Part shown: positions 6,156 through 29,679 of the stretch, in pieces | How the letters are laid out: each line of letters begins with the position of its first letter | Position numbering within the stretch: the first letter of the stretch is position 1 | NCBI RefSeq assembly: GCF_002310835.1 | Contig: NZ_CP011042.1 | Span: forward strand, 1 to 32,000 | From: Pseudoalteromonas tetraodonis | GTDB taxonomy: Bacteria; Pseudomonadota; Gammaproteobacteria; Enterobacterales; Alteromonadaceae | Direction: 5' to 3' | Length of the DNA stretch: 32,000 nucleotides | Position numbers and translations under genes: made by a program | The notes under the pieces: generated by a model | The model's database searches: none | Told to the model about the DNA's origin: nothing | What the model saw: only the letters and a program-made list of their open reading frames with translations

Positions 6156-6183
6156 TGAACTAATCACAAATGGCTGGGTCTAT
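6156..6183 (+). promoter_or_regulatory. sigmaE(ECF)-like promoter of sRNA unit 2
   Basis: TGAACTA (6156-6162), 16 nt, TCTAT (6179-6183). Confidence 0.45.
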
Positions 6184-6189
6184 TATTAT

Positions 6190-6288
6190 GCTTGTAGTTG
6201 ATGTGTTGTTATACAAGTTTCATGTTGATTTCCCTGTTTGATTACTAATTTAGTAATATTGAGCCAGCTTTATTAGCTGGCTTTTTTT
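6190..6288 (+). ncRNA. candidate small RNA, unit 2 of 3 tandem paralogs
   Basis: 5' hairpin CTTGTA...TACAAG. Conserved TTTCATGTTGATTTCCC (6218-6234). Small hairpin TTACTAatttTAGTAA. Terminator 6263-6288. Confidence 0.55.
6263..6288 (+). terminator. Rho-independent terminator (sRNA unit 2)
   Basis: GCCAGC tttatta GCTGGC followed by T7. Confidence 0.85.
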
Positions 6289-6320
6289 ATGCCTCAAATT
6301 CAACTTTTTTAAAATTATTT

Positions 6321-6348
6321 TGAACTAATTTAATCAGAGCGCGTCTAC
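6321..6348 (+). promoter_or_regulatory. sigmaE(ECF)-like promoter of sRNA unit 3
   Basis: TGAACTA (6321-6327), 16 nt, TCTAC (6344-6348). Confidence 0.45.
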
Positions 6349-6354
6349 AATTAT

Positions 6355-6469
6355 GCTTGTAGTTGATATGTTGTTTTACAAGTTTCATGTTGATTTCCCT
6401 GTTTGATTACTAATTTACTAATTTACTAATTTAGTAATATTGAGCCAGCTTTACTAGCTGGCTTTTTTT
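6355..6469 (+). ncRNA. candidate small RNA, unit 3 of 3 tandem paralogs
   Basis: Near-identical to unit 2: hairpin CTTGTA...TACAAG, seed TTTCATGTTGATTTCCC at 6383-6399. It also carries a TACTAATT x3 expansion (6408-6431). Terminator 6444-6469. Confidence 0.55.
6444..6469 (+). terminator. Rho-independent terminator (sRNA unit 3)
   Basis: GCCAGC tttacta GCTGGC followed by T7. Confidence 0.85.
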
Positions 6470-6554
6470 ATGCGCTTAATTTAGTGTTTTACCCTACTGC
6501 TAAAGAGCGTAATTCGTTATGATGGCATGTCACTAAATTTTAAAAGTTTATTCT

Positions 6555-13353: not shown

Positions 13354-13387
13354 AGCCGCACACTAATTATTAGTATGCGGCTTTTTT
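13354..13387 (+). terminator. Rho-independent terminator of the peptidase gene
   Basis: AGCCGCACACTA...TAGTATGCGGCT stem followed by T6. Confidence 0.85.
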
Positions 13388-13493
13388 AATCAAAATGTAA
13401 CGGGGATTTACAGCTGGGTTTAAAGGTTAAAGGAACAAGGTCAAAGAATTTTAGTTACGGTAAGTTGGGTATAGCCGAACAAAACCCAACAAG
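13388..13493 (+). repeat. dispersed intergenic repeat, copy A (starts directly after a terminator T-tract)
   Basis: AATCAAAATGTAACGGGGATTTACAG...GTTGGGT..AACAAAACCCAAC aligns by eye with 18468-18576. Its 5' third also aligns with 21298-21345. Confidence 0.55.
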
Positions 13494-18430: not shown

Positions 18431-18467
18431 AGCCACACCTTAGCACATGTTGAGGTGTGGCTTTTTT
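18431..18467 (+). terminator. Rho-independent terminator of mesD
   Basis: AGCCACACCT...AGGTGTGGCT stem followed by T6. Confidence 0.9.
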
Positions 18468-18576
18468 AATCAAAATGTCATGGGGGTTTACACAACGAGG
18501 TTAAAGGCAAAAGGTGCTAGGTGAAAGGTTTAAGTTCGTTGAGTGTTAGTTGGGTTGAGTGCAACAAACCTAGCAA
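18468..18576 (+). repeat. dispersed intergenic repeat, copy B (left edge of the AT-rich island)
   Basis: AATCAAAATGTCATGGGGGTTTACAC...GTTGGGTTGAGTGCAACAAACC aligns with copy A (13388-13493). Confidence 0.55.
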
Positions 18577-18653: not shown

Positions 18654-18744
18654 GCCTAACATGCATTGTGTTGGTGTGGCTTTTTGCGTTGCTTGCCAAA
18701 ACCATGGCAAAGTTACATTGTCCTTGTTTAACAGCTTTTTAGGC
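18654..18744 (-). mobile_element. attC-like site 1 (weakest of three)
   Basis: On the minus strand: GCCTAAA (contains the TAA stop of the 2-TM ORF) ... central hairpin TTGCCA/TGGCAA ... GTTAGGC (18660..18654). One core is imperfect. Part of the site duplicates the mesD terminator arm. Confidence 0.4.
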
Positions 18745-19446
18745 GCTTTTAGAGAGTACCTCATATTCTGGATTACCATATGAGCCAATTAATATATCTT
18801 CGCGTGTTTCTTCGCCTCTAGAATCAAAGAAATTGTAACCATCCAGATTCAGCTCGTTAGCAAGCTTTATTGCAACATCTATCTCTCGATTCTCTAAATA
18901 TTGGGAAATAGACATGATTCTCTTTTCAGGGACATCATTAGAACCAAAACTTGTAACTCTAAGTACGCCATTTGTAGAAAGTACCTCTTTGATACGATTT
19001 TTATCCGCTAAATGCTTATTGACACCAATAAGGAGTGAGGTTTCCGGTGCACCTTGGTTTGGCTCATTTACAAAACTCAGTTTAGATAACTTCTCTTCTA
19101 TTTTTTCTATAGAAATAGTTAACTCGTTTAATTGAACTTCGTTTTTAGGGACTTTAACTGGCTCGTTTGTCTTTTTATTTAAATAACTTGAATAATAAGA
19201 GTCTTCTTGTAGCTCTGGCCTAAATTTAGTTTGTAGTAAAAAAACAGAACCTAAAAATATTGGTACATTGATTATAGCCGCTAAAACTAATGCGCCAGAC
19301 TGCCATGAATTAACATCAAAATTTGCAGCGCCAACTAAGTAACAACTATTTATAGAAAACAGACCAACTAACCAAGCTCCAAGAAGTTGGATAGGTTTAG
19401 TAATTTTTTCAGGTTTAATTTGATTTTCTGACATACTTAGATGCAA
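18739..19446 (-). CDS. 2-TM membrane protein of unknown function (cassette ORF)
   Basis: 235 aa. Two predicted TM helices (LLGAWLVGLFSINSCYLVGAA and ALVLAAIINVPIFLGSVFLL), a short coiled-coil-like stretch, and a ~100-aa soluble C-terminal domain. The track start is TTG at 19446; ATG at 19434 (MSENQ) is the alternative, with AAGGAG upstream. Low GC. Confidence 0.7.
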   Translation of the reverse strand: MHLSMSENQIKPEKITKPIQLLGAWLVGLFSINSCYLVGAANFDVNSWQSGALVLAAIINVPIFLGSVFLLQTKFRPELQEDSYYSSYLNKKTNEPVKVPKNEVQLNELTISIEKIEEKLSKLSFVNEPNQGAPETSLLIGVNKHLADKNRIKEVLSTNGVLRVTSFGSNDVPEKRIMSISQYLENREIDVAIKLANELNLDGYNFFDSRGEETREDILIGSYGNPEYEVLSKSA

Positions 19447-19456
19447 CTCCTTAAGC

Positions 19457-19556
19457 GCCTAACGCCGCCTTGAGCGGTGAGTAATAGTTGGCTAAAATGT
19501 GAAGCGAAGCGGAACCGAGCCAACTGTTACGAACCGACTTTAAGCCCTTGTTAGGC
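19457..19556 (-). mobile_element. attC-like recombination site 2 (best example)
   Basis: 100-bp imperfect palindrome bounded by GCCTAAC (19457-19463) and GTTAGGC (19550-19556). Inner arms pair with bulges (AGTTGGCT/AGCCAACT, GTAAT/GTTAC, CGGT/ACCG). The TAA stop of the upstream ORF lies inside the core. Confidence 0.65.
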
Positions 19557-20621
19557 GAAATATTGCAACCCATACTTTTTACTATTTTCTTGAACATTTT
19601 CTAATGTTTCAATTTCTGAATAATACTTATAACCATGCCCCATATCAATTTCTTTACAGAAGATTAATCGCTCATAAGGTTCTTGGTTTTTTTCAGAGAA
19701 GTGACAGAAAATATGAGGGAAATAGTCATACTCATCTCCGTAAAAATTGATAGTTTCAATATTAACAAAGGGAATTTCACCTACAAGAAAAACTCTTTCG
19801 TCACCTTGCTCTCCACTTTTGGTATCTCTGAACCTTAAGCTTCCATCTTCACAGAGTGAAAGCGCTCCAGCTTTTAAAAAAACTTGAACTCCACGATGAT
19901 AAAGTTGAGCTAACTCAACCTTAAACCAAGGAGATATTCCATCATCATCTGATACTTCTGGGTAATTATCAACGCGATCTAAGTCGCGGAGAATAACCCT
20001 ACGCCTTAATTTCTCGTAATTTATTTTTTGAATATATTCAGATAACTGCTGTCTTACGGCTTCTTGGTGTTTAACTTTTTCACCATTACTGGAAAACTTA
20101 GGGCCTACAACTTTAGGCTGTTTAGCATAGGGTTTTAATGCGCTAACAAATGAATCAATTAGTTTTTTCTTAACTTCAGCTTTGTCAGATATATTTTTAT
20201 CACTTAATTCATAGCTAATAGGCCAACGCTTGTGAGCTAAATCGAAAGGAATATTACCATTTGCCTCACCAAAAGAAGTATTAATTACGTTAATAACTCT
20301 TTCATCGCCTAAAGCGTACATTGCATAGCCTAACTCTATTAGCACATTTGGGTTGGATAATGCTCTGCCACTTTCAGAAAATGACACAAAAGTAATATCA
20401 CCAATAAAAATATCACTGCTTTCTATTTTAGATAAAATAGTTGTAGCTATATCGGGAGATCCCGGAACGCCCTTCGTATCGTGATCTTCTCGCATCGATT
20501 CTTTAAGATCGAACTCTTGATTGACTTTCTTTACAGCTGCCTTAAGGCAATCTAGTTGAAAATATCGATTGTATTTCGCATTGATATCACTTTGCCAAGA
20601 ATAGAAAACCTTTATTGTCAC
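19551..20621 (-). CDS. TIR-like (COG4271 / nucleoside 2-deoxyribosyltransferase-like) N-terminal domain fused to an uncharacterised C-terminal domain (cassette ORF)
   Basis: 356 aa. GTG start with AAGG 8 nt upstream. N-terminus KVFYSWQSD...DIFIGDITFV...NPNVLIELGYAMYALGDERVINV matches the strand/acidic-residue/NVxxELGY-Glu layout of bacterial TIR-like effector domains. The C-terminal ~180 aa has no motif I recognise. Low GC. Confidence 0.6.
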   Translation of the reverse strand: MTIKVFYSWQSDINAKYNRYFQLDCLKAAVKKVNQEFDLKESMREDHDTKGVPGSPDIATTILSKIESSDIFIGDITFVSFSESGRALSNPNVLIELGYAMYALGDERVINVINTSFGEANGNIPFDLAHKRWPISYELSDKNISDKAEVKKKLIDSFVSALKPYAKQPKVVGPKFSSNGEKVKHQEAVRQQLSEYIQKINYEKLRRRVILRDLDRVDNYPEVSDDDGISPWFKVELAQLYHRGVQVFLKAGALSLCEDGSLRFRDTKSGEQGDERVFLVGEIPFVNIETINFYGDEYDYFPHIFCHFSEKNQEPYERLIFCKEIDMGHGYKYYSEIETLENVQENSKKYGLQYFA

Positions 20622-20644
20622 AGATATGCCTTAATTTGAGTTTC

Positions 20645-20701
20645 GCCTAACATTTTAGTATTTATGCGACACGCTGTTTGTGTTGCATAATCGCTTGTTG
20701 G
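20645..20701 (-). mobile_element. attC-like site 3 (short, 57 bp)
   Basis: GCCTAAC (20645-20651) ... TTATGCGACA/TGTTGCATAA inner arms ... GTTGGAC (20695-20701, fits GTTRRRY). On the minus strand it sits directly upstream of the TIR-like cassette. Confidence 0.5.
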
Positions 20702-21297
20702 ACTGAGCCGCTACCTGCTCGGTGTATCAGAGTTGGTGTTGTTTATGCTATGGACTTTTTATATAAAAGAAGGGCTTTTTATGACCTAAGCTAAATCAGC
20801 TAATTTAATCAGCTGACCAATTATAATTTAAGCTTTCCCTGCGTCGCTCAGTGTTCATTATTTATCCATTAAACCTAATATTTAACCGTTAAGCAAGGAT
20901 ATTTTTCGCTCGCACAGCCGCTATTAGCCTGAGCAGTTAAGCAGGTTAACTCATTGATTTGATGCAGCAACCAAGGCAGCTAACTTTTTCGAACTATTTC
21001 ATTCGTAGCAATACCTGAGGTTATCCCTCCGATACAAAGGACAAAGGAGGAAAATCTTAACTTCAGGCATCAAATACTTTGGCTGACCCATTATCAATAT
21101 TTTGCTTATCAGTAACAGTCTAAAACAATAAGATAAACAAATAACCCCTACTTTTAGCTATTACTTAGTTTGATTTCTAACTAGCACTTACAAACTCAAC
21201 AGTCCTTCTACCCATTCTAAAACAAAGCGTGTGTTTTGGGTTTGTTCGCGCTGCTGATTAATTACTTTATCAACCCCCACCTACATGCGGTATTTTT

Positions 21298-21345
21298 AAC
21301 CAAACCGTAACGGGGGTTTACAGCAACGGCTTAAAACGCGGGTGC
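21298..21345 (+). repeat. dispersed intergenic repeat, partial copy C (right edge of the AT-rich island)
   Basis: AACCAAACCGTAACGGGGGTTTACAGCAACGG matches the 5' part of copies A and B. An inverted fragment of the AACAAACCCA word occurs at 21237-21248. Confidence 0.45.
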
Positions 21346-22177: not shown

Positions 22178-22444
22178 AGGGTCTGTTGATCTTTCAAGGT
22201 TAAATTTGCAGCAGTCTGTTTGGTATTTAGGCAAGGCAGAGCCTATGTGGTGTGGTTATTCCCCATAAATAGGCGATAACGCAGCATCAATGCCAAACAG
22301 GCGCTGCCCTTCGGGTTCTGCCTAGGGGCGATTTACTCTTTGTTGCTCGGTTTTTACTTAGCCCACTAGGTTACAAACCTCGCGCCGCGATTAAACCGCC
22401 CCTAGTTTGAACAAATTTTAATCCGCAAAGGTCAACAGACCCTA
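22177..22444. repeat. 268-bp inverted-repeat-bounded, internally highly palindromic element (MITE-like or structured RNA)
   Basis: Terminal inverted repeats TAGGGTCTGTTGATCTTT (22177-22194) and AAAGGTCAACAGACCCTA (22427-22444), with a 12-bp perfect core. Nested internal stems: GCAGCAGTCTGTTTGG/CCAAACAGGCGCTGC, AGGCAGAGCC/GGTTCTGCCT, CCTAGGGGCG/CGCCCCTAG. Confidence 0.5.
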
Positions 22445-22894
22445 GTCTTTAATTGCAATGGCAATTTCTATTTCGTTACTGTTTTTATAATACTCAAAAT
22501 CACTGGTGTAAGTACGTTCATAGCGGCAATCGTCTGAGCTGAAGTATTGCCAAATTTCGCCCCATAAATCGATTACTGCATCGGGCATTTCACCTTCACC
22601 TTTAAATACCAAATAACGCCCCGCTTGGGTGGTTACTTTTTTAGCTTCAGGGAGTTTAATTGATAAATTATCGCAGCAGGCAATTACGTCAAAATCGCCA
22701 GTGAGATCGCTTTCGTAATTAGTATACACACCATACACTTTGGTGTTTTGGGTAAGGCTGTTGGCAAACTTTTCACCAAATTTTTGCCAAAGTTCAGCTA
22801 TATTTGCAGTGCCAGCGTTCATTTCATTGGCGTTGCAGGTTCTTACTTTTAAGCCGATTAAGGTCTGACTTGCTAATTGTTTTACTTCCATCAT
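22442..22894 (-). CDS. GyrI-like (SbmC/AraC-effector-binding fold) small-molecule-binding protein
   Basis: The pattern LIGLKVRT...IAELWQKF...VYGVYTNYESD...FDVIACC...AGRYLVFKGEGEMPDAVIDLWGEIWQYF is typical of stand-alone GyrI-like domains. The likely start is MMEVKQ (22894 or 22891, with AAGGA upstream). The track ORF extends to 22924. Confidence 0.75.
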   Translation of the reverse strand: MMEVKQLASQTLIGLKVRTCNANEMNAGTANIAELWQKFGEKFANSLTQNTKVYGVYTNYESDLTGDFDVIACCDNLSIKLPEAKKVTTQAGRYLVFKGEGEMPDAVIDLWGEIWQYFSSDDCRYERTYTSDFEYYKNSNEIEIAIAIKD

Positions 22895-23210
22895 GACGTC
22901 CTTTAGCGTTAATACAAACACCAACGTAACAGAAAAACCGCCAATACTTTAAATTTTGTATTAAATATTTCATAAACAGTGATTATTGAGCTCAATTGCG
23001 TGTTTATTGCTCATGTTTAAATAGGTGCCAATCGCTAAACGTGGCTTTGCTACCGCTAAAATAATTGCTCAATTCCCCCTTTTTTAACTTTATTTTTGCA
23101 TGTAATGCTTGTCGTTTAATAATATGGCTTATCGATTTTTGTTAAAAATATACGACAAGCTTATTAGCTCTAATTTAAAAAAAGTTGTTATCTAATCCTT
23201 TTTCATTATT

Positions 23211-23252: not shown

Positions 23253-24812
23253 GTGTACTCAAGGAATGTTGATGTGTCTCAATCTCACGTGTTAAATATT
23301 AATACCATTGAAAAACAGGCTGTATTTGAACAAAGCGGCCTGCCCCCACAATTCAATTTAGAGCAGTTCATTAATTATCAAATAGCGTCTTTGCAAGGGT
23401 TGTCGGCGGTACAGCAAGCGATGGCTAAAGCCCAAAAGCCATTTTCAGGTGTGTCGGTAAATGCGTTAGCAAAAGTAGTAAACGATGTTGATTTATCAAA
23501 GCCTTTGGCTGACTTTCCGGCGGTGCTTGAAGAGCTAAAAGGCGTGTATTTAGATCATGCCGTGTATTTTCATCATCCTCGCTACATGGCGCATTTAAAC
23601 TGCCCTGTAACCTATCCTGCTGTGGTGGCCGAACACATTATTGCTGCTATTAATACCTCGGTAGATACGTGGGATCAAAGTGCAGGTGCGACCTTAATTG
23701 AGCAAAAGCTGATTGATTGGACATGCCAAAAAGCAGCATTGCCAAGCACTGCCGATGGAGTATTTACTAGTGGCGGCACACAATCAAACTTAATGGCAAT
23801 GTTAGTTGCTCGTGAAGTAGCAGTTAGCCGATATGCGCCAGAACATCAGGTAAAACTTCAGGGCTTACCAGCTGTTGCCTCGCGCTTTAAAATTTACTGC
23901 TCTGAGGTGGCGCATTTTAGTATTCAAAAAGCGGCGGCGTTATTGGGGCTCGGTTACAACGCTGTGGTGCCGGTGGCTACAAACAGCGAAATGCAAATGG
24001 ATATGCATGCACTTAAAACCGCCATAGCAACAAGCAAAGCGCAAGGCGATTTACCCATTGCAGTGGTTATTACCGCAGGTACAACCGATTTTGGCTCAAT
24101 CGATCCAATCCATAATATTGTCATGCTAGCTAAAGAAGAGCAGCTATGGTGCCACGTAGATGGCGCTTATGGCGGCGGTTTGTTGGTGAGCGAGCACCAC
24201 CGAAATGCGCTTAATGGCATTGAGTTGGTTGATTCAATAACGATTGATTATCACAAATCATTTATGCAACCGGTTAGTTGTAGTGCCTTTTTATTAAGTG
24301 ACAAACGCCATTTTAGCCACATTACTTTATATGCCGATTATTTAAACCCATTAGCAGAGGCTGGAAATGGCACGCCTAATTTGGTTGATAAAAGCCTACA
24401 AACCACCCGCCGTTTTGATGCCTTAAAGTTATGGCTAACACTGCGCACCACTGGAGAAGCACCGCTGGGTCGCGCGTTCGATAAAGTTATTGGCCTTGCG
24501 CGCCAAACGCATATTGTACTTAACGACCATCCCGACTTTGAAGTAGTAAATTACCCCGAGCTTAGTGCCTTGGTATTTAGATTTGCCCCTGATGATTTAA
24601 AACATGACCTTGATTTACTCGACTCTTTAAACCTGCATGTACGACAAACGTTTTTACAAACCGGTGAAGCCATGGTTGCCCGTACAAAAATAAATGGTCG
24701 TCATTACCTTAAATTTACATTGCTTAATGCGCAGTGCCAATTAACAGATGTACGCGCTGTTATTGAGAAAATTAGCCACATTGCATGGCAAACTTATAGG
24801 GAAATTGCATAA
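23253..24812 (+). CDS. PLP-dependent group II amino-acid decarboxylase (DesA/BibA; diaminobutyrate, lysine or ornithine decarboxylase type)
   Basis: 519 aa. PLP-lysine motif ITIDYHKSF, and TSGGTQSNL. First gene of the hydroxamate siderophore operon. The track start is GTG 23253; GTG 23274 has a better AAGGA Shine-Dalgarno. Confidence 0.9.
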   Translation: MYSRNVDVSQSHVLNINTIEKQAVFEQSGLPPQFNLEQFINYQIASLQGLSAVQQAMAKAQKPFSGVSVNALAKVVNDVDLSKPLADFPAVLEELKGVYLDHAVYFHHPRYMAHLNCPVTYPAVVAEHIIAAINTSVDTWDQSAGATLIEQKLIDWTCQKAALPSTADGVFTSGGTQSNLMAMLVAREVAVSRYAPEHQVKLQGLPAVASRFKIYCSEVAHFSIQKAAALLGLGYNAVVPVATNSEMQMDMHALKTAIATSKAQGDLPIAVVITAGTTDFGSIDPIHNIVMLAKEEQLWCHVDGAYGGGLLVSEHHRNALNGIELVDSITIDYHKSFMQPVSCSAFLLSDKRHFSHITLYADYLNPLAEAGNGTPNLVDKSLQTTRRFDALKLWLTLRTTGEAPLGRAFDKVIGLARQTHIVLNDHPDFEVVNYPELSALVFRFAPDDLKHDLDLLDSLNLHVRQTFLQTGEAMVARTKINGRHYLKFTLLNAQCQLTDVRAVIEKISHIAWQTYREIA

Positions 24813-26131
24813 TGGATAATCAACCTTACGATTTTATAGCTATTGGCCTTGGGCCATTTAACTTATCTTTAGCGTGTTTAAGTGAACCGCTCGAAGATGT
24901 AAAAAGCCTGTTTTTAGAGCAGCGCAGTGAATTTGATTGGCACCCAGGAATGATGCTTGAGGGCGTTACATTACAAACTCCGTTTATGTCGGATTTAGTA
25001 ACCATGGCAGATCCAACCAGCCAGTATAGCTTTTTAAATTATGCCAAATTAAATAATCGTTTATACCCGTTTTATATTCGCGAAAGCTTTTTTTTATTGC
25101 GCCGTGAATACAACTTATATTGCCAATGGGTTTGCTCGCAGCTTTCAAATGTTAACTTTGAACAAACAGTCACTCACGTTGAATTTTGCCCGCAAAGTGA
25201 GTGTTATACCGTTAGCTGTAACACCCCTAATGGCATACAACATTATGTGACTCGCCATATTGTTTTGGGCACAGGGCCTGCACCGTATATTCCTGATTGC
25301 GCTGTGCAAAGTAACTCAAATAACGTAATGCACAGTAGCGATTTTTGTCATCGGCTTGATGAATTAAAAGCGGCTAAACGGGTTACCGTGGTAGGGGCTG
25401 GACAAAGTGCAGCAGAAATTTACCACACCTTATTGCAGCAAGCAGTACCGCAAGGCTTGCAGTTAGATTGGATAGCACGCTCACCGCGCTATTTTCCGCT
25501 TGAGTATACTAAACTCACCCTTGAAATGACCTCTCCTGAGTATGTAGATTACTTTTATAATTTAAAAACTGAGCAGCGAGATTGGCTCAATCAAAACCAA
25601 AAAAATCTATTTAAGGGCATTAATGGCGATTTAATTAACGACATTTTCGACACCCTCTACGCGCAAAGCCTTGATGGGCCAATTTCTACTACATTTAAAA
25701 CTAACAGCAGGCTAACAGGTACTCAAAAAGTAGGTAAGCGTTTACTGACTGAGTTTTATCATCAGGAGCTTGAGCAGCCCTTTTCAATAGAAACCGACTT
25801 TTTAATTTGCGCCACGGGCTTTAAATATCAGCGCCCTGCTTTTTTAAATAATATTGCCCATCAACTACCCCAAGATGAGCAAGGTCGTTATTTAGTGAGC
25901 CGTGACTATGCGGTAGATACAGAGCAAAAACGTATTTTTGTACAAAATGCTGAGCAGCATACTCATGGTTTTGTAACTCCAGATTTAGGTATGGCTTGCT
26001 ACCGTAATAGTATTATTTTACGTGAAATTTTAGGTTATTCGCCTTATCAGGTTGAGCAAAAAATTGCTTTTCAAAACTTTGATTTAAGTGATGTCACCCT
26101 ATCAACACAACAGCAGAGTAGCGCCGCATGA
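24812..26131 (+). CDS. diamine/lysine N-hydroxylating flavin monooxygenase (IucD/AlcA/DesB/BibB family)
   Basis: 439 aa. FAD motif DFIAIGLGPFNLSLA, NADPH motif VVGAGQSAAEI. The start overlaps the upstream stop (TAATG). Confidence 0.9.
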   Translation: MDNQPYDFIAIGLGPFNLSLACLSEPLEDVKSLFLEQRSEFDWHPGMMLEGVTLQTPFMSDLVTMADPTSQYSFLNYAKLNNRLYPFYIRESFFLLRREYNLYCQWVCSQLSNVNFEQTVTHVEFCPQSECYTVSCNTPNGIQHYVTRHIVLGTGPAPYIPDCAVQSNSNNVMHSSDFCHRLDELKAAKRVTVVGAGQSAAEIYHTLLQQAVPQGLQLDWIARSPRYFPLEYTKLTLEMTSPEYVDYFYNLKTEQRDWLNQNQKNLFKGINGDLINDIFDTLYAQSLDGPISTTFKTNSRLTGTQKVGKRLLTEFYHQELEQPFSIETDFLICATGFKYQRPAFLNNIAHQLPQDEQGRYLVSRDYAVDTEQKRIFVQNAEQHTHGFVTPDLGMACYRNSIILREILGYSPYQVEQKIAFQNFDLSDVTLSTQQQSSAA

Positions 26132-27306
26132 GTCTTCGTTTAGCGCTAATTTTGCTGACGGTTATTTCGGTGGTATGCGATACCTTGCTGCTACCGTTTT
26201 ATCCGCAATTTTTTGCTAGTGAATTTGCTATTAGTAACGCCACTCTAATCGGCCTCTTTGTGGCTAACTGTTGTATTACTGTAATGCTGGCTTTACCGCT
26301 ATGGGCTAAGGTCGCTAAAAAATACAATGAATTGGCTTTGTGGTTAGTAACCCAAGTAGTAGCCGCTGGTTTTGGCCTGCTTTGCTACTTTGCGACCAAT
26401 GTGTGGGAGTTTTGGGTTTACTACCAACTTATGTTGGTGCTCAAGGCAAGCTACCTACTTATATACCCATTTGCACTGCGATTAGAGCAACAAACTAAGC
26501 ATTTATCTATTATTGGTTTGTTTTCTGTATTGATGCATTTTGGTGCGATTGGTGGTGCTTTAATTGGTGGTTACTTCTTTAGTTTAGCAGAGCCACGCTA
26601 TGCGTTATTACTCAGTAGTGCCGGTGACCTAATCCAGGTTTTATTATGCGCCTACTTAATGTATTCATTAAAAACAGGTATTTATCAGCAAGTAATAGCG
26701 ACTGAAAAACCGCGAGAACGTATTCCCTATTTTATTTGGCAATTTTGCTTTTTAAGTGTGGTGGTTTATTTTAGCGCGTTTTTAATTCGCCCTTTCTTTA
26801 CTACTCATTGGCAAGCATTAAACGCACAAAGCAGCACCTTGCAAAGCGCTGTTGTATACGCCATTCCTGCTTTTTCAGCGCTTGTTATGCTGGTTTTTAA
26901 CCATTTCAGGCAGCATCTACCACTGCCAACATTAAGCCGCACTAGCACTTTGTTATGTGCACTTATTTTAGGGGCGCTTGGGCTTTATTTACAAGCGCAG
27001 GCGTCGGTGGGGTTAGTGATTTTATCACGTGTTTTATATGGCTTTGCGCTATTTCAAGTGATGGTACTGCTAGAGGTAATGCTATTTGCTAAAAGTGAGC
27101 CTGCACATTACGGCAGCGACTTTGCCAAAGTGCACATTGCTCAAAATATCGGGGTTATTTTAGCGTCGTTACTAGTGGGTATGAGCGTAGAGCATCTTTC
27201 AACCACGGTTGTGTTTTACTTTGCTGCCATTGGCTTTGCAAGCCTTGCCTTTATTTTGCTTTGGCGGGTTAAGGCTGTTGCTCGAACTGCGCGTTCAGCG
27301 TCTTAG
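26128..27306 (+). CDS. MFS transporter (probable siderophore exporter)
   Basis: 392 aa with about 12 hydrophobic segments. ATGA overlap with the monooxygenase gene. Embedded in the biosynthetic operon. Confidence 0.75.
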   Translation: MSLRLALILLTVISVVCDTLLLPFYPQFFASEFAISNATLIGLFVANCCITVMLALPLWAKVAKKYNELALWLVTQVVAAGFGLLCYFATNVWEFWVYYQLMLVLKASYLLIYPFALRLEQQTKHLSIIGLFSVLMHFGAIGGALIGGYFFSLAEPRYALLLSSAGDLIQVLLCAYLMYSLKTGIYQQVIATEKPRERIPYFIWQFCFLSVVVYFSAFLIRPFFTTHWQALNAQSSTLQSAVVYAIPAFSALVMLVFNHFRQHLPLPTLSRTSTLLCALILGALGLYLQAQASVGLVILSRVLYGFALFQVMVLLEVMLFAKSEPAHYGSDFAKVHIAQNIGVILASLLVGMSVEHLSTTVVFYFAAIGFASLAFILLWRVKAVARTARSAS

Positions 27307-27330
27307 TTTTTAAGATTTATTGGAGTTTTT

Positions 27331-29679
27331 ATGTATTTTTCATCTTTTGTAAGCACCCTACAGCATACCGGCAAAGTAACGATGCGGTTATTACAGCAAA
27401 CAGATATGCCAACAATATGCGATTGGCTTAAGCAACCGTATGCGCACTTTTGGGGGATGCAGCAGCAAACCGAGCAACAAATAACTAAAGCGTATCAAGC
27501 TATTATTGATACGCCTCATCATCAGGCATACGTGATCGAGCAAAATAATAACCTATTGGCTTTAGTTGAGCTTTATAGCCCAGAGCACGAAAGCTTAATG
27601 AAAGCGGCGTACGAAGTTGAACCGAATGATGTGGGTATGCATATTTTATTAGCGCCTAACACGGCACCTAAGCACCATTTTAGTTTTGAAATGATGCAGT
27701 GCGTGCTGCAAAGTATTTTTGCTCAAAACAGCGCCGCTCGTGTTGTGGTTGAGCCTGACATTGCTAATAGTAAAATTCATACATTAAATAAGCGTTTGGG
27801 GTTTGTGCATACCCAGCAAATTCAACTGGGCGAAAAAGCCGCTTATTTAGGCTTTTGTAATAAAGCAGCCTTTGATAGGCACAGCCAACTATTTACTGAT
27901 TCGTTAGCGCCTTTACAAACTGATTACGTGATACAGCCACATTGGCAATGGGCAAATCGGCATTTACAAGCTAAAGCACTCACCGAGCTTGTGCACGAGC
28001 GTTTATTGGCCGCAGAGACAACAAAGCAAGGCTTTAAAGTGAATGTTGAAGGCGGTTACTTTATTTTTAATGGCCGTGCTATGGCACTAAACCATATTGA
28101 TATAGACGAGCCAAGCCTATGCTTTTACAACCTTAACGAAGAGCTGCAGCCGCTAGATGTGTTGCACTTTTTTAGTATGCAAGGGCCTGCGCTAGGTTTA
28201 ACGGGTAAGCGCCTTGCCACCTACCTTGAAGAGCTAAATGCTACTTTAGCCAGTGCGTGCTTTAAACGCGAAAATAACACCTTAACAGCGGCGCAGTTAG
28301 CTAATTTAGGGCTGCAAAAAATAGAAGCTGCAATGAGTGAAGGTCACCCTGCGTTTGTGGCTAATAATGGCCGCATTGGTTTTAGTAAAGCTGACTTTTT
28401 ACGTTATGCGCCAGAAGTAGGCAAACCGTTTAAAATACTGTGGTTAGCAGCGCATAAAGCGGTATGCGACTTTGCCCATAGTGAATACTTTGCCGATTAC
28501 CCAAGCCATATAAGTGATGAGCTAGATTTAACCACCCGAGATGCGTTTAACAAAGCGCTAAAAGCTCAAAACCTTAACCCCGATGATTACTTACTCATTC
28601 CTGCTCACCCTTGGCAGTACCAACACAAATTGAGTGTGGTATTTGCAAATGAGTTGGCAAATCAGCGATTAGTGTATTTAGGTGAAGGTGACGATTTATA
28701 TCAAGCGCAACAATCAATTCGGACCTTATATAATTGCTCGCACCCGCATAAGCCGTATTTAAAAGTGGCGTTGTCGATTTTAAATATGGGATTTATGCGT
28801 GGCCTATCGCGTGCTTACATGGCGGTGACTCCTGCCATTAACGATTGGGTATTTGAAAAGGTTAGCCAAGATCAACAACTCGCAGGCGCTAATTTTACAG
28901 CGCTTAGAGAATACGCCACCTTAGGTTATGCCCATCATACGTTTGAGCAACACGCCCTTGGGGATACACCCTATCGTAAAATGTTTGCCTGCTTATGGCG
29001 AGAAAACCCAAACCATAATTTAAATAGTGATGAACAACTGACCACTATGGCAGCGTTATTACACTTAGATAATAATGGCCAAAGTTTAGTGGGCGAATGG
29101 ATAGCGCAAAGTGGTTTGAGCACGCAGCAGTGGTTACATGAGTACTTTAATGCCTATTTAATTCCGCTAGTACATTGCTTTTACGCGCATAAATTAGTGT
29201 TTATGCCCCACGGTGAAAACCTCATTTTAAAGCTTAAAAATTCGGTGCCAGTGGGCGCATATATGAAAGACATAGGTGAAGAGGTTGCCTTACTTAATAG
29301 CACTGAAGTATTGCCTGCAGGGGTTGAACGTATTCATGTTTCTATGCCTAAAGAGCTTGAGCTGTTAAGTATATTTACCGATGTATTTGACTGCTTCTTT
29401 AGATACTTAGTGGCAATTTTAGTGCGAGAAGAGCGTATTACAGAGCATGACTTTTGGCAGTGTGTTACGCAAAGTGTTAAAGCATATCAACATGCTAACC
29501 CTGCTTTAAATGAGCGATTTAAAGAGTATGACTTTTTTAGTGATGAGTTTGCTCACTCTTGTTTAAACCGCTTACAGCTGGGTAATAATGAGCAAATGGT
29601 TGATTTAACGGATCCGGCAGGTAGTTTGCAGTTTGCTGGTAACTTAAACAACCCCGTATCGGCAAAGCTGTATGGCTAA
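27331..29679 (+). CDS. fused N-hydroxydiamine acyltransferase (IucB/AlcB/DesC-like) and IucA/IucC NIS synthetase (BibC-like)
   Basis: 782 aa. The N-terminal ~180 aa carries WLKQPYAHFWGM and VVVEPDIANSK (siderophore acyltransferase type). It is followed by IucA/IucC hallmarks IPAHPWQ, QSIRTL and MPHGENL, and a C-terminal FhuF-like helper region. Confidence 0.9.
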   Translation: MYFSSFVSTLQHTGKVTMRLLQQTDMPTICDWLKQPYAHFWGMQQQTEQQITKAYQAIIDTPHHQAYVIEQNNNLLALVELYSPEHESLMKAAYEVEPNDVGMHILLAPNTAPKHHFSFEMMQCVLQSIFAQNSAARVVVEPDIANSKIHTLNKRLGFVHTQQIQLGEKAAYLGFCNKAAFDRHSQLFTDSLAPLQTDYVIQPHWQWANRHLQAKALTELVHERLLAAETTKQGFKVNVEGGYFIFNGRAMALNHIDIDEPSLCFYNLNEELQPLDVLHFFSMQGPALGLTGKRLATYLEELNATLASACFKRENNTLTAAQLANLGLQKIEAAMSEGHPAFVANNGRIGFSKADFLRYAPEVGKPFKILWLAAHKAVCDFAHSEYFADYPSHISDELDLTTRDAFNKALKAQNLNPDDYLLIPAHPWQYQHKLSVVFANELANQRLVYLGEGDDLYQAQQSIRTLYNCSHPHKPYLKVALSILNMGFMRGLSRAYMAVTPAINDWVFEKVSQDQQLAGANFTALREYATLGYAHHTFEQHALGDTPYRKMFACLWRENPNHNLNSDEQLTTMAALLHLDNNGQSLVGEWIAQSGLSTQQWLHEYFNAYLIPLVHCFYAHKLVFMPHGENLILKLKNSVPVGAYMKDIGEEVALLNSTEVLPAGVERIHVSMPKELELLSIFTDVFDCFFRYLVAILVREERITEHDFWQCVTQSVKAYQHANPALNERFKEYDFFSDEFAHSCLNRLQLGNNEQMVDLTDPAGSLQFAGNLNNPVSAKLYG

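Follow-up and report, generated by a model that had tools for sequence, protein, structure and literature searches.

Defence by a single protein with a TIR effector is well established. Among the described TIR effectors, SfSTING uses E84 as its catalytic residue, and the catalytic glutamate lies on helix alphaC in all TIR-like hydrolases (PMC9402430). In SfSTING, ribose and phosphate are coordinated through R78 and N80, with F6 and S10 lining the pocket, and the dimer mate supplies D110 to complete the active site (PMC9402430). Swarozyc, a one-protein system, combines a DUF4062 TIR-like NADase with an auxiliary domain and causes abortive infection via NAD+ depletion, the phage portal being its direct trigger (bioRxiv 10.64898/2026.05.01.722283). 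A large TIR survey by Yirmiya et al. explicitly left out TIR proteins that stand alone. Integron cassettes are recognised as a store of defence genes (Kieffer 2025, Darracq 2025), and a TIR-containing cassette (BRiC) from mobile integrons is Brc236; TIR is mentioned nowhere in the Darracq 2025 preprint. Here we describe a gene in the first 32,000 nucleotides of contig NZ_CP011042.1 of Pseudoalteromonas tetraodonis (assembly GCF_002310835.1), a stretch referred to below as the window. The gene is carried on an integron cassette and encodes a protein in which a TIR-like N-terminal domain (N-domain) is followed by a helical linker and a C-terminal module (C-module), the two halves being connected by a stalk at residues ~141–203.

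As judged from its sequence and predicted structure, the cassette protein is a good candidate for a new one-protein anti-phage defence. Its most likely function, which we propose with moderate confidence from sequence, model and analogy, would be that of a stand-alone, sensor-activated TIR-type NADase acting by abortive infection. In the resting state the enzyme would be inactive. Upon meeting its cue, possibly a component of the phage or a small molecule linked to infection, the C-module would drive self-association of the protein and so gather the TIR domains, and the active site would be completed as in other TIR NADases. NAD+ would then be cleaved through Glu96, growth would stop, and the infection would be aborted. 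We include the oligomerisation step because TIR NADases generally act in this way, as with D110 from the dimer mate in SfSTING and the Swarozyc-portal assembly. The NAD+ substrate, oligomerisation as the trigger mode, the nature of the cue and the anti-phage phenotype are what we infer. Computed support comes from the mobility of the cassette, the TIR/NDT-like fold, an invariant glutamate in the right place, swappable halves, a lone gene and defence-rich surroundings. The gene and its parts are the following.

19551–20621, minus strand: coding sequence of 356 amino acids with a GTG start and a TAA stop (open reading frame list, 32-sequence alignment, exact database match, and dN/dS, the ratio of nonsynonymous to synonymous substitution rates)
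20124–20621, minus strand: N-terminal TIR/NDT-like domain, residues 1–166, putative NADase effector (AlphaFold2 model, Foldseek, weak PF10137 matches)
20334–20336, minus strand: codon of Glu96, predicted catalytic (invariance, model helix, motif spacing, Pfam local match)
19554–20102, minus strand: C-terminal module, residues 174–356, putative sensor or regulatory domain (AlphaFold2 model without recognised fold, 687-cluster profile, alternative N-terminal partners)

The open reading frame is genuine, far beyond chance, as confirmed by its relatives, its dN/dS and an exact database record. The protein is identical in sequence to WP_244186394.1, a P. tetraodonis “hypothetical protein”, and its UniRef name is “CAP12/Pycsar effector TIR domain-containing”. 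All motifs that the original prediction had read are present in the translation, namely KVFYSWQSD (residues 4–12), DIFIGDITFV (70–79) and NPNVLIELGYAMYALGDERV (90–109) in the first half, and RVILRDLDRVDNYPEV (208–223) and FYGDEYDYFPHIFCHF (293–308) in the second. A database search retrieved 3575 relatives (E ≤ 1e-3). About 50 clusters of relatives are full-length, with 45–96% identity, and originate from Pseudoalteromonas, Colwellia, Vibrio, Nitrosomonas, Rheinheimera, Halieaceae and Desulfobacter, while the first ~165 residues alone are common to a far larger set. The full-length alignment of 32 sequences has a mean column identity of 66%. Relative to an independent, 96%-identical Pseudoalteromonas copy (locus L001), the dN/dS is 0.083 for the whole protein (N-domain 0.072, C-module 0.101), and therefore both parts are functional.

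Copies with at least 90% identity were found in Colwellia sp. MB02u-10 and several Pseudoalteromonas species, and P. espejiana and P. xiamenensis have shortened versions of 201 and 231 amino acids in their annotation. This pattern fits a recent horizontal spread with occasional decay. Of the 74 plasmids that carry relatives of the N-domain, 56 are conjugative, and a tblastn search of phage genomes yielded no sequenced phage with such a relative. A literature search for the family and its sequence motifs, with Getz et al. 2025 lying outside its coverage, found no describing paper and no evidence that the family is among the integron cassettes already tested.

The N-domain is probably a TIR-type domain and a putative NAD+-destroying enzyme, as its predicted structure indicates. 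The AlphaFold2 model, built with 32 sequences (pLDDT 81), has at residues 1–166 a flavodoxin-like beta-alpha domain, which superposes on solved TIRs. In a Foldseek search with this domain, the top match was the TIR domain of SfSTING (7un8_A, E 4e-5, probability 1.0). Next, at ~2e-3 to 5e-3, came TIR-1, MilB (4ohb, 2e-3), DNPH1 (9i9q, 3e-3) and NDT (8pqp, 4e-3), with the SARM1 TIR at ~1e-2; 9lmr, 8p2m, 6o0u and 9mw2 were also among the matches. The TIR/NDT-like fold, proposed in the original prediction from sequence motifs, is thus recovered in the model. In Pfam, the protein matches PF10137 (CAP12/Pycsar-effector TIR) locally at residues 89–114 (17.2 bits, E 0.005), weak sub-threshold matches to the same family occur in 30 of the 32 homologues (best 7e-5), and some paralogous members of the wider family carry PF10137 in precomputed annotation. 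By these sequence and model comparisons, we place the N-domain as a divergent member of a known family, in the PF10137 (Cap12/PycTIR) lineage. NCBIfam and PHROGs gave nothing useful, the sole match being phrog_3634 (unknown function) on the N-domain.

The glutamate of the IELGY motif, on which the original prediction depended, is indeed conserved. This residue, E96, does not vary among the 32 full-length homologues or among 22 distant relatives of the N-domain, and stands in the motif N90-P-N92-V-L-I-E96-L-G-Y. In the model it lies on helix 91–104, which we take as alphaC, where a conserved catalytic glutamate is expected of a TIR. The spacing of N90, N92 and E96 (i/i+2/i+6) is the same as that of R78, N80 and E84 in SfSTING, and F6 and S8 are placed on strand beta1. 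The residues invariant across the wide family are F6, Y7, S8, W9, Q10, D12, D46, D48, D75, N90, N92, E96, G98, Y99, H130 and R132. The equivalence of E96 with the SfSTING E84 is, as far as sequence and model reach, well supported but not proven.

These same data bear on the substrate. With an unchanged architecture, the N-domain could be a nucleotide or nucleoside N-glycosidase acting on (d)NMPs or modified nucleotides, and not on NAD+. The Foldseek matches to MilB, DNPH1 and NDT point in this direction, as do weak PF05014 matches in two of the homologues and the additional invariant residues D12, D46, H47, D48, D75 and H130, which are not among the named pocket residues of SfSTING. We nevertheless regard an N-glycosidase as unlikely, given that the top matches are TIR NADases, both in structure and through PF10137, and that the N-x-x-x-E context together with F6 and S8 on beta1 mirrors the NAD+ pocket of SfSTING.

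In contrast to the N-domain, the C-module resembles nothing described, as the original prediction had suspected. Modelled alone with AlphaFold2, it is predicted with confidence (pLDDT 86.7, pTM 0.81) with a long helix at its start, then a beta domain of ~9 strands and a helix at the end. Foldseek found no significant neighbour for it, neither in the PDB (copy up to April 2026; best E 1.1, TM-score 0.2) nor in BFVD (best E 0.32), and sequence searches gave no match in Pfam, NCBIfam, PADLOC or PHROG and no PDB chain. The module is widespread: an exhaustive profile search retrieved 687 clusters (50% identity), and 420 of these reach E ≤ 1e-10. Where the TIR-like domain is missing, the C-module is found in proteins of ~200–245 amino acids with one or two transmembrane helices at the N-terminus. 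Further fusions of the C-module are the following.

P0281: canonical TIR_2 domain (E 1e-26), with a weak ThsB_TIR match too
P0316, P0317 and P0276: Mrr-type endonuclease, Mrr_cat (best E 1.5e-5)
P0305: MerR helix-turn-helix (E 2.4e-8)
P0251: DUF4062-like domain, weak (E 0.0046)
P0300: HNH-like motif, read by eye only

The identified partners, with the exception of the MerR helix-turn-helix, are by sequence domain types used as cell-killing effectors. The N-domain for its part remains constant across its family, while the C-termini are of at least five unrelated types. The commonest of these alternative C-termini was considered as kin of the C-module and found to be unrelated (hhalign probability 0.1%). 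With alternative partners on both sides, the N-domain and the C-module are therefore independently swappable. Cell-killing partners and swappability together are the comparative hallmark of a sensor or regulator coupled to exchangeable effectors, and one C-module with varied toxic partners is the pattern expected of one sensor serving several killers. Across all forms of the C-module, R216, Y220-P221, I229-S-P-W-F233, Y241, G295, P302, C306-H307 and P315-Y316 are invariant, and the invariant polar residues are R216, Y220, S230, W232, Y241, D296, H303, C306, H307 and Y316. We therefore describe the C-module as a putative autonomous sensor or regulatory domain of unrecognised fold. The suggestion in the original prediction that this half could be a sensor is compatible with the fusion partners found elsewhere.

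Since single-protein defence with a TIR is established, the effector half of the protein is unsurprising, and the novel element is the sensor half. The C-module is conserved and evolves under purifying selection, and its model is of high confidence. It has neither a Pfam family nor a structural relative in the PDB or BFVD, and over hundreds of clusters its partners are at least five distinct modules that kill cells or regulate. Taken together, these properties of sequence and model point to an infection sensor of an undescribed kind. More tentatively, and with a chance that we put somewhat short of even, the C-module may be a structurally new, widespread sensor, which defines an unnamed family of one-protein defences with interchangeable killers, spread by mobile elements. 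Such a family would comprise ~690 clusters (50% identity) from Gamma-, Alpha-, Beta-, Delta- and Epsilonproteobacteria. Its killers would be several TIR-like NADases (two profile-supported, a third weakly), Mrr, possibly HNH-like nucleases, and membrane helices, and its vehicles integron cassettes, plasmids and other mobile elements.

The gene is a genuine mobile single-gene integron cassette. Its boundaries in the window are the following.

19457–19556, minus strand: own attC site, 100 nt, with R'' GCCTAAC and R' GTTAGGC (pattern match, fold, strict scan, end of the L001 homology)
20645–20703, minus strand: upstream attC site, 59 nt, R'' GTCCAAC ... R' GTTAGGC, the 5' cassette boundary (fold, start of the L001 homology)
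19463–20650, minus strand: mobile cassette unit, ~1188 nt between the two G|TT points (pairwise alignment against L001, the 96%-identical copy)

The stop codon of the gene lies inside the R'' box (GCC TAA C) of the 100-nt attC. This attC pattern has an expectation of zero in shuffled sequences, its bottom-strand DNA fold pairs the R and L boxes (z = -3.9), and it is the sole site in the window passing a strict attC scan. The upstream attC ends 25 nt before the start codon, and a fold of 20640–20770 pairs its R boxes and a 12-bp inner stem (z = -3.2). In the alignment with L001, similarity extends from the upstream GTTAGGC exactly to the GTTAG of the downstream attC, and the flanks on both sides are unrelated. 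Similarity confined to the stretch between the GTTAGGC cores is the mark of a unit moved by integrase recombination at G|TT. A 71%-identical homologue in Vibrio vulnificus is found amid four different sets of neighbouring cassettes. In one strain with a complete platform (L005), it stands first among the cassettes behind intI, with the GTTAGGC of attI 25 nt 5' of its ATG and the stop again within GCC TAA C, and nine repeated attC sites follow. The Vibrio-type attC sites escape the strict scan and were found by repeat finding and sequence reading. The cassette label given in the original prediction is therefore well founded, with attC sites on both sides, boundaries at the recombination cores and G|TT-bounded units in different array positions. 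The gene should be easy to clone, because it is a self-contained 1.2-kb cassette.

The TIR-like gene stands alone, no partner gene being conserved with it. Neighbouring genes differ in every locus inspected, and in ~15 inspected loci the gene has no cyclase, CD-NTase or signalling TIR beside it; a CD-NTase or pyrimidine cyclase was likewise found neither beside the gene in the window nor in L001–L006, L088, L089 and L095. The assignment to a Thoeris, CBASS or Pycsar operon, which the original prediction had brought into play through its comparison with their effectors, did not hold, as no cyclase or partner is present. Downstream in the window lie the following.

18739–19446, minus strand: next cassette, encoding a 235-amino-acid protein with two predicted transmembrane helices (no family match in any library)
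18654–18742, minus strand: degenerate attC-like site, GCCTAAA ... GTTAGGC, tentative (sequence reading; GTTAGGC at 18654–18660; fold z = -1.0)

The stop codon of the 235-amino-acid gene also falls within GCCTAA. As a possible membrane effector partner this protein was rejected, since it is a cassette of its own and has no tblastn match in 89 related loci, and it is unrelated to the 234-amino-acid neighbour in L088.

The lone position of the gene bears on two further explanations. In the first, the protein would be an orphan effector, in which the C-module binds a nucleotide messenger from a CBASS, Pycsar, Thoeris or type III CRISPR system elsewhere in the cell, with the cassette as an add-on. 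The STING and the cyclic nucleotide monophosphate (cNMP)-binding domains of Pycsar are each one ligand-binding module on which TIR and transmembrane partners are exchanged. The same swap of partners is seen on the C-module, the N-domain shares its lineage with the CBASS and Pycsar effectors Cap12 and PycTIR, and the conserved polar residues and the MerR helix-turn-helix fusion of the C-module are compatible with small-molecule binding. An orphan effector is nevertheless rather improbable in our view, considering the ~15 loci without an adjacent messenger-producing gene, a C-module unlike the STING, SAVED, CARF and cNMP-binding folds, and the movement of a single cassette between genomes, which disfavours reliance on a specific partner. 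In the second explanation, the TIR would itself produce a signal of the cyclic ADP-ribose type for a separate effector, as in Thoeris. TIR domains can generate signals, and the TIR of P0281 weakly matches ThsB_TIR. We consider a signal producer highly improbable, given that no neighbouring effector is conserved, that the PF10137 lineage is an effector type of TIR, and that Yirmiya et al. placed standalone TIR proteins outside Thoeris.

The surroundings of relatives in other genomes are often rich in defence genes or mobile elements, as all but the last of the following loci illustrate.

L095, Vibrio splendidus: full-length homologue on a relaxase-bearing element, immediately behind a DUF2971 gene, with Kiwa (KwaA/KwaB) 1.3 kb downstream
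L094: relative fused to transmembrane helices, adjoining type I restriction-modification genes and a RelB-like gene
L091: relative fused to transmembrane helices, among a row of small genes including a toxin-antitoxin pair
L090 (H6), Paracoccus plasmid: C-module protein after a type ISP restriction-modification enzyme
L089: full-length homologue adjoining a Cas1 and PolB block
L086: relative in an ordinary chromosome, flanked by flagellar and housekeeping genes

The V. splendidus arrangement of DUF2971 gene, homologue and Kiwa spans 6251–10996 of L095, and a DUF2971 gene also lies upstream of a transmembrane-fused relative in Methylotenera (L087, 165–1106). In L089 (8027–13883), the block of Cas1 and a family-B DNA polymerase is casposon-like and abuts the full-length homologue, which suggests that the homologue is carried by, or inserted beside, another class of mobile element. 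One V. vulnificus array with the homologue (L003, 93–1532) also encodes a 479-amino-acid protein, in which a PF10137 TIR is fused to TPR repeats. It represents another TIR-effector cassette, whose C-terminal module is of a different kind.

These contexts can be set against a role outside immunity, such as regulated NAD or nucleotide metabolism, growth arrest under stress, or a cassette toxin of other ecological role. The functions of most integron cassettes are unknown, some relatives reside in plain chromosome, as in L086, and PADLOC made no call. On the other side, the identified partners of the C-module, apart from the MerR helix-turn-helix, are of cell-killing types (TIR, DUF4062, Mrr, HNH-like and transmembrane), Kiwa, restriction-modification and toxin-antitoxin genes and mobile elements are repeatedly nearby, and the plasmids with N-domain relatives are mostly conjugative. 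A non-immune role thus appears to have only a small chance.

Several observations weigh against a sensor-activated NADase in defence. The PF10137 match of 17.2 bits misses the gathering threshold of 24.7 bits, and PADLOC, a check that the original prediction had named, did not call the protein (best only E 0.037). Two sequence profiles run against the PDB reached no solved TIR and gave spurious matches only; the equivalence of E96 and E84 hence rests on the spacing within the motif, the local Pfam match and the helix position. Among the window open reading frames scanned, with the three largest (778–1058 amino acids) outside the scan, there is no integrase, and therefore we treat the locus as an integrase-less attC cluster (CALIN type); no linked intI/attI/Pc platform was found in the window. 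A promoter scan 5' of the gene found no convincing sigma-70-like promoter. Some homologues have plain chromosomal contexts of the L086 type. The Foldseek matches to MilB, DNPH1 and NDT (E ~1e-3) could mean a nucleotide instead of NAD+ as substrate, and the invariant polar residues of the C-module could form a catalytic rather than a sensing site. With these points taken into account, sequence and model support the view of the original prediction, that the TIR-sensor fusion is a defence candidate.

The cassettes are part of a 2.8-kb islet of low GC content, flanked by a 37-nt direct repeat. This repeat, of at least 37 nt, occurs at 13376–13412, 18456–18492 and 21286–21322. Copies 1 and 2 are alike over ~120 nt, including a terminator hairpin, and copies 2 and 3 flank the islet. 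It could be a REP-like (repetitive extragenic palindrome) element or an insertion-site duplication. An Rfam search of the islet found nothing real. The 580 bp that separate the first attC from the outer direct repeat (20704–21285) contain no open reading frame longer than 32 amino acids, and no sigma-70-like promoter reading into the cassette strand was detected in them. About 1.8 kb from the attC cluster, past an opposite-strand HAD hydrolase gene, lies a Cass2 gene (22442–22924, minus strand; PF14526, ‘integron-associated effector binding protein’, GyrI-like). Farther away, two tandem-like units of ~165–181 nt, 87–94% identical, occupy 6178–6490 in the gap upstream of rmuC, each closing with a terminator-like hairpin (GAGCCAGCTTTATTAGCTGGCTTTTTTT). 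At 23253–29679 (plus strand), genes for a pyridoxal phosphate-dependent decarboxylase, a Lys/Orn N-monooxygenase and a major facilitator superfamily transporter and a 782-amino-acid open reading frame share one strand. This looks like a hydroxamate-siderophore biosynthesis cluster, an ordinary chromosomal context.

Compared with known systems, Cap12/SfSTING of CBASS and PycTIR of Pycsar are similar to the cassette protein in several respects. SfSTING (7un8_A) is the closest N-domain structure and has the same catalytic-glutamate context on alphaC. In these effectors, as predicted here, an N-terminal TIR effector precedes a C-terminal sensing domain, and siblings with a transmembrane effector carry the same sensing domain. 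Unlike them, the cassette protein is encoded by a single-gene cassette with no CD-NTase or cyclase partner, has a sub-threshold Pfam score, and carries a C-domain that is not STING, SAVED or cNMP-binding (no Pfam match, PDB best E 1.1). It also differs from Thoeris with its ThsB TIR, in that no signal-responsive effector, of the ThsA type or other, is adjacent; the neighbours vary, and the 235-amino-acid gene is absent from the 89 loci. The NDT, MilB and DNPH1 N-glycosidases share a Rossmann-like fold class and a catalytic glutamate with the N-domain (Foldseek E 2e-3 to 5e-3), but they match more weakly than the TIR NADases and are small, stand-alone metabolic enzymes without sensor fusions.

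Swarozyc is likewise a single polypeptide, with a TIR-like NADase (predicted in our case), a helical stalk and a C-terminal auxiliary domain. Its catalytic glutamate, E97, is at nearly the same position as E96, and a weak DUF4062-like N-domain is found on our C-module in P0251. The N-domain of the cassette protein itself differs in having no match to PF13271 (DUF4062) at E ≤ 1. With the integron defence cassettes (BRiCs; Kieffer 2025, Darracq 2025), the gene shares its form, being a compact candidate, promoterless and attC-bounded, and Vibrio chromosomal integrons hold its homologues. It offers a candidate TIR-type example for the stockpiling of defence genes in chromosomal integrons, and would extend it to Pseudoalteromonas and to integrase-less attC clusters.

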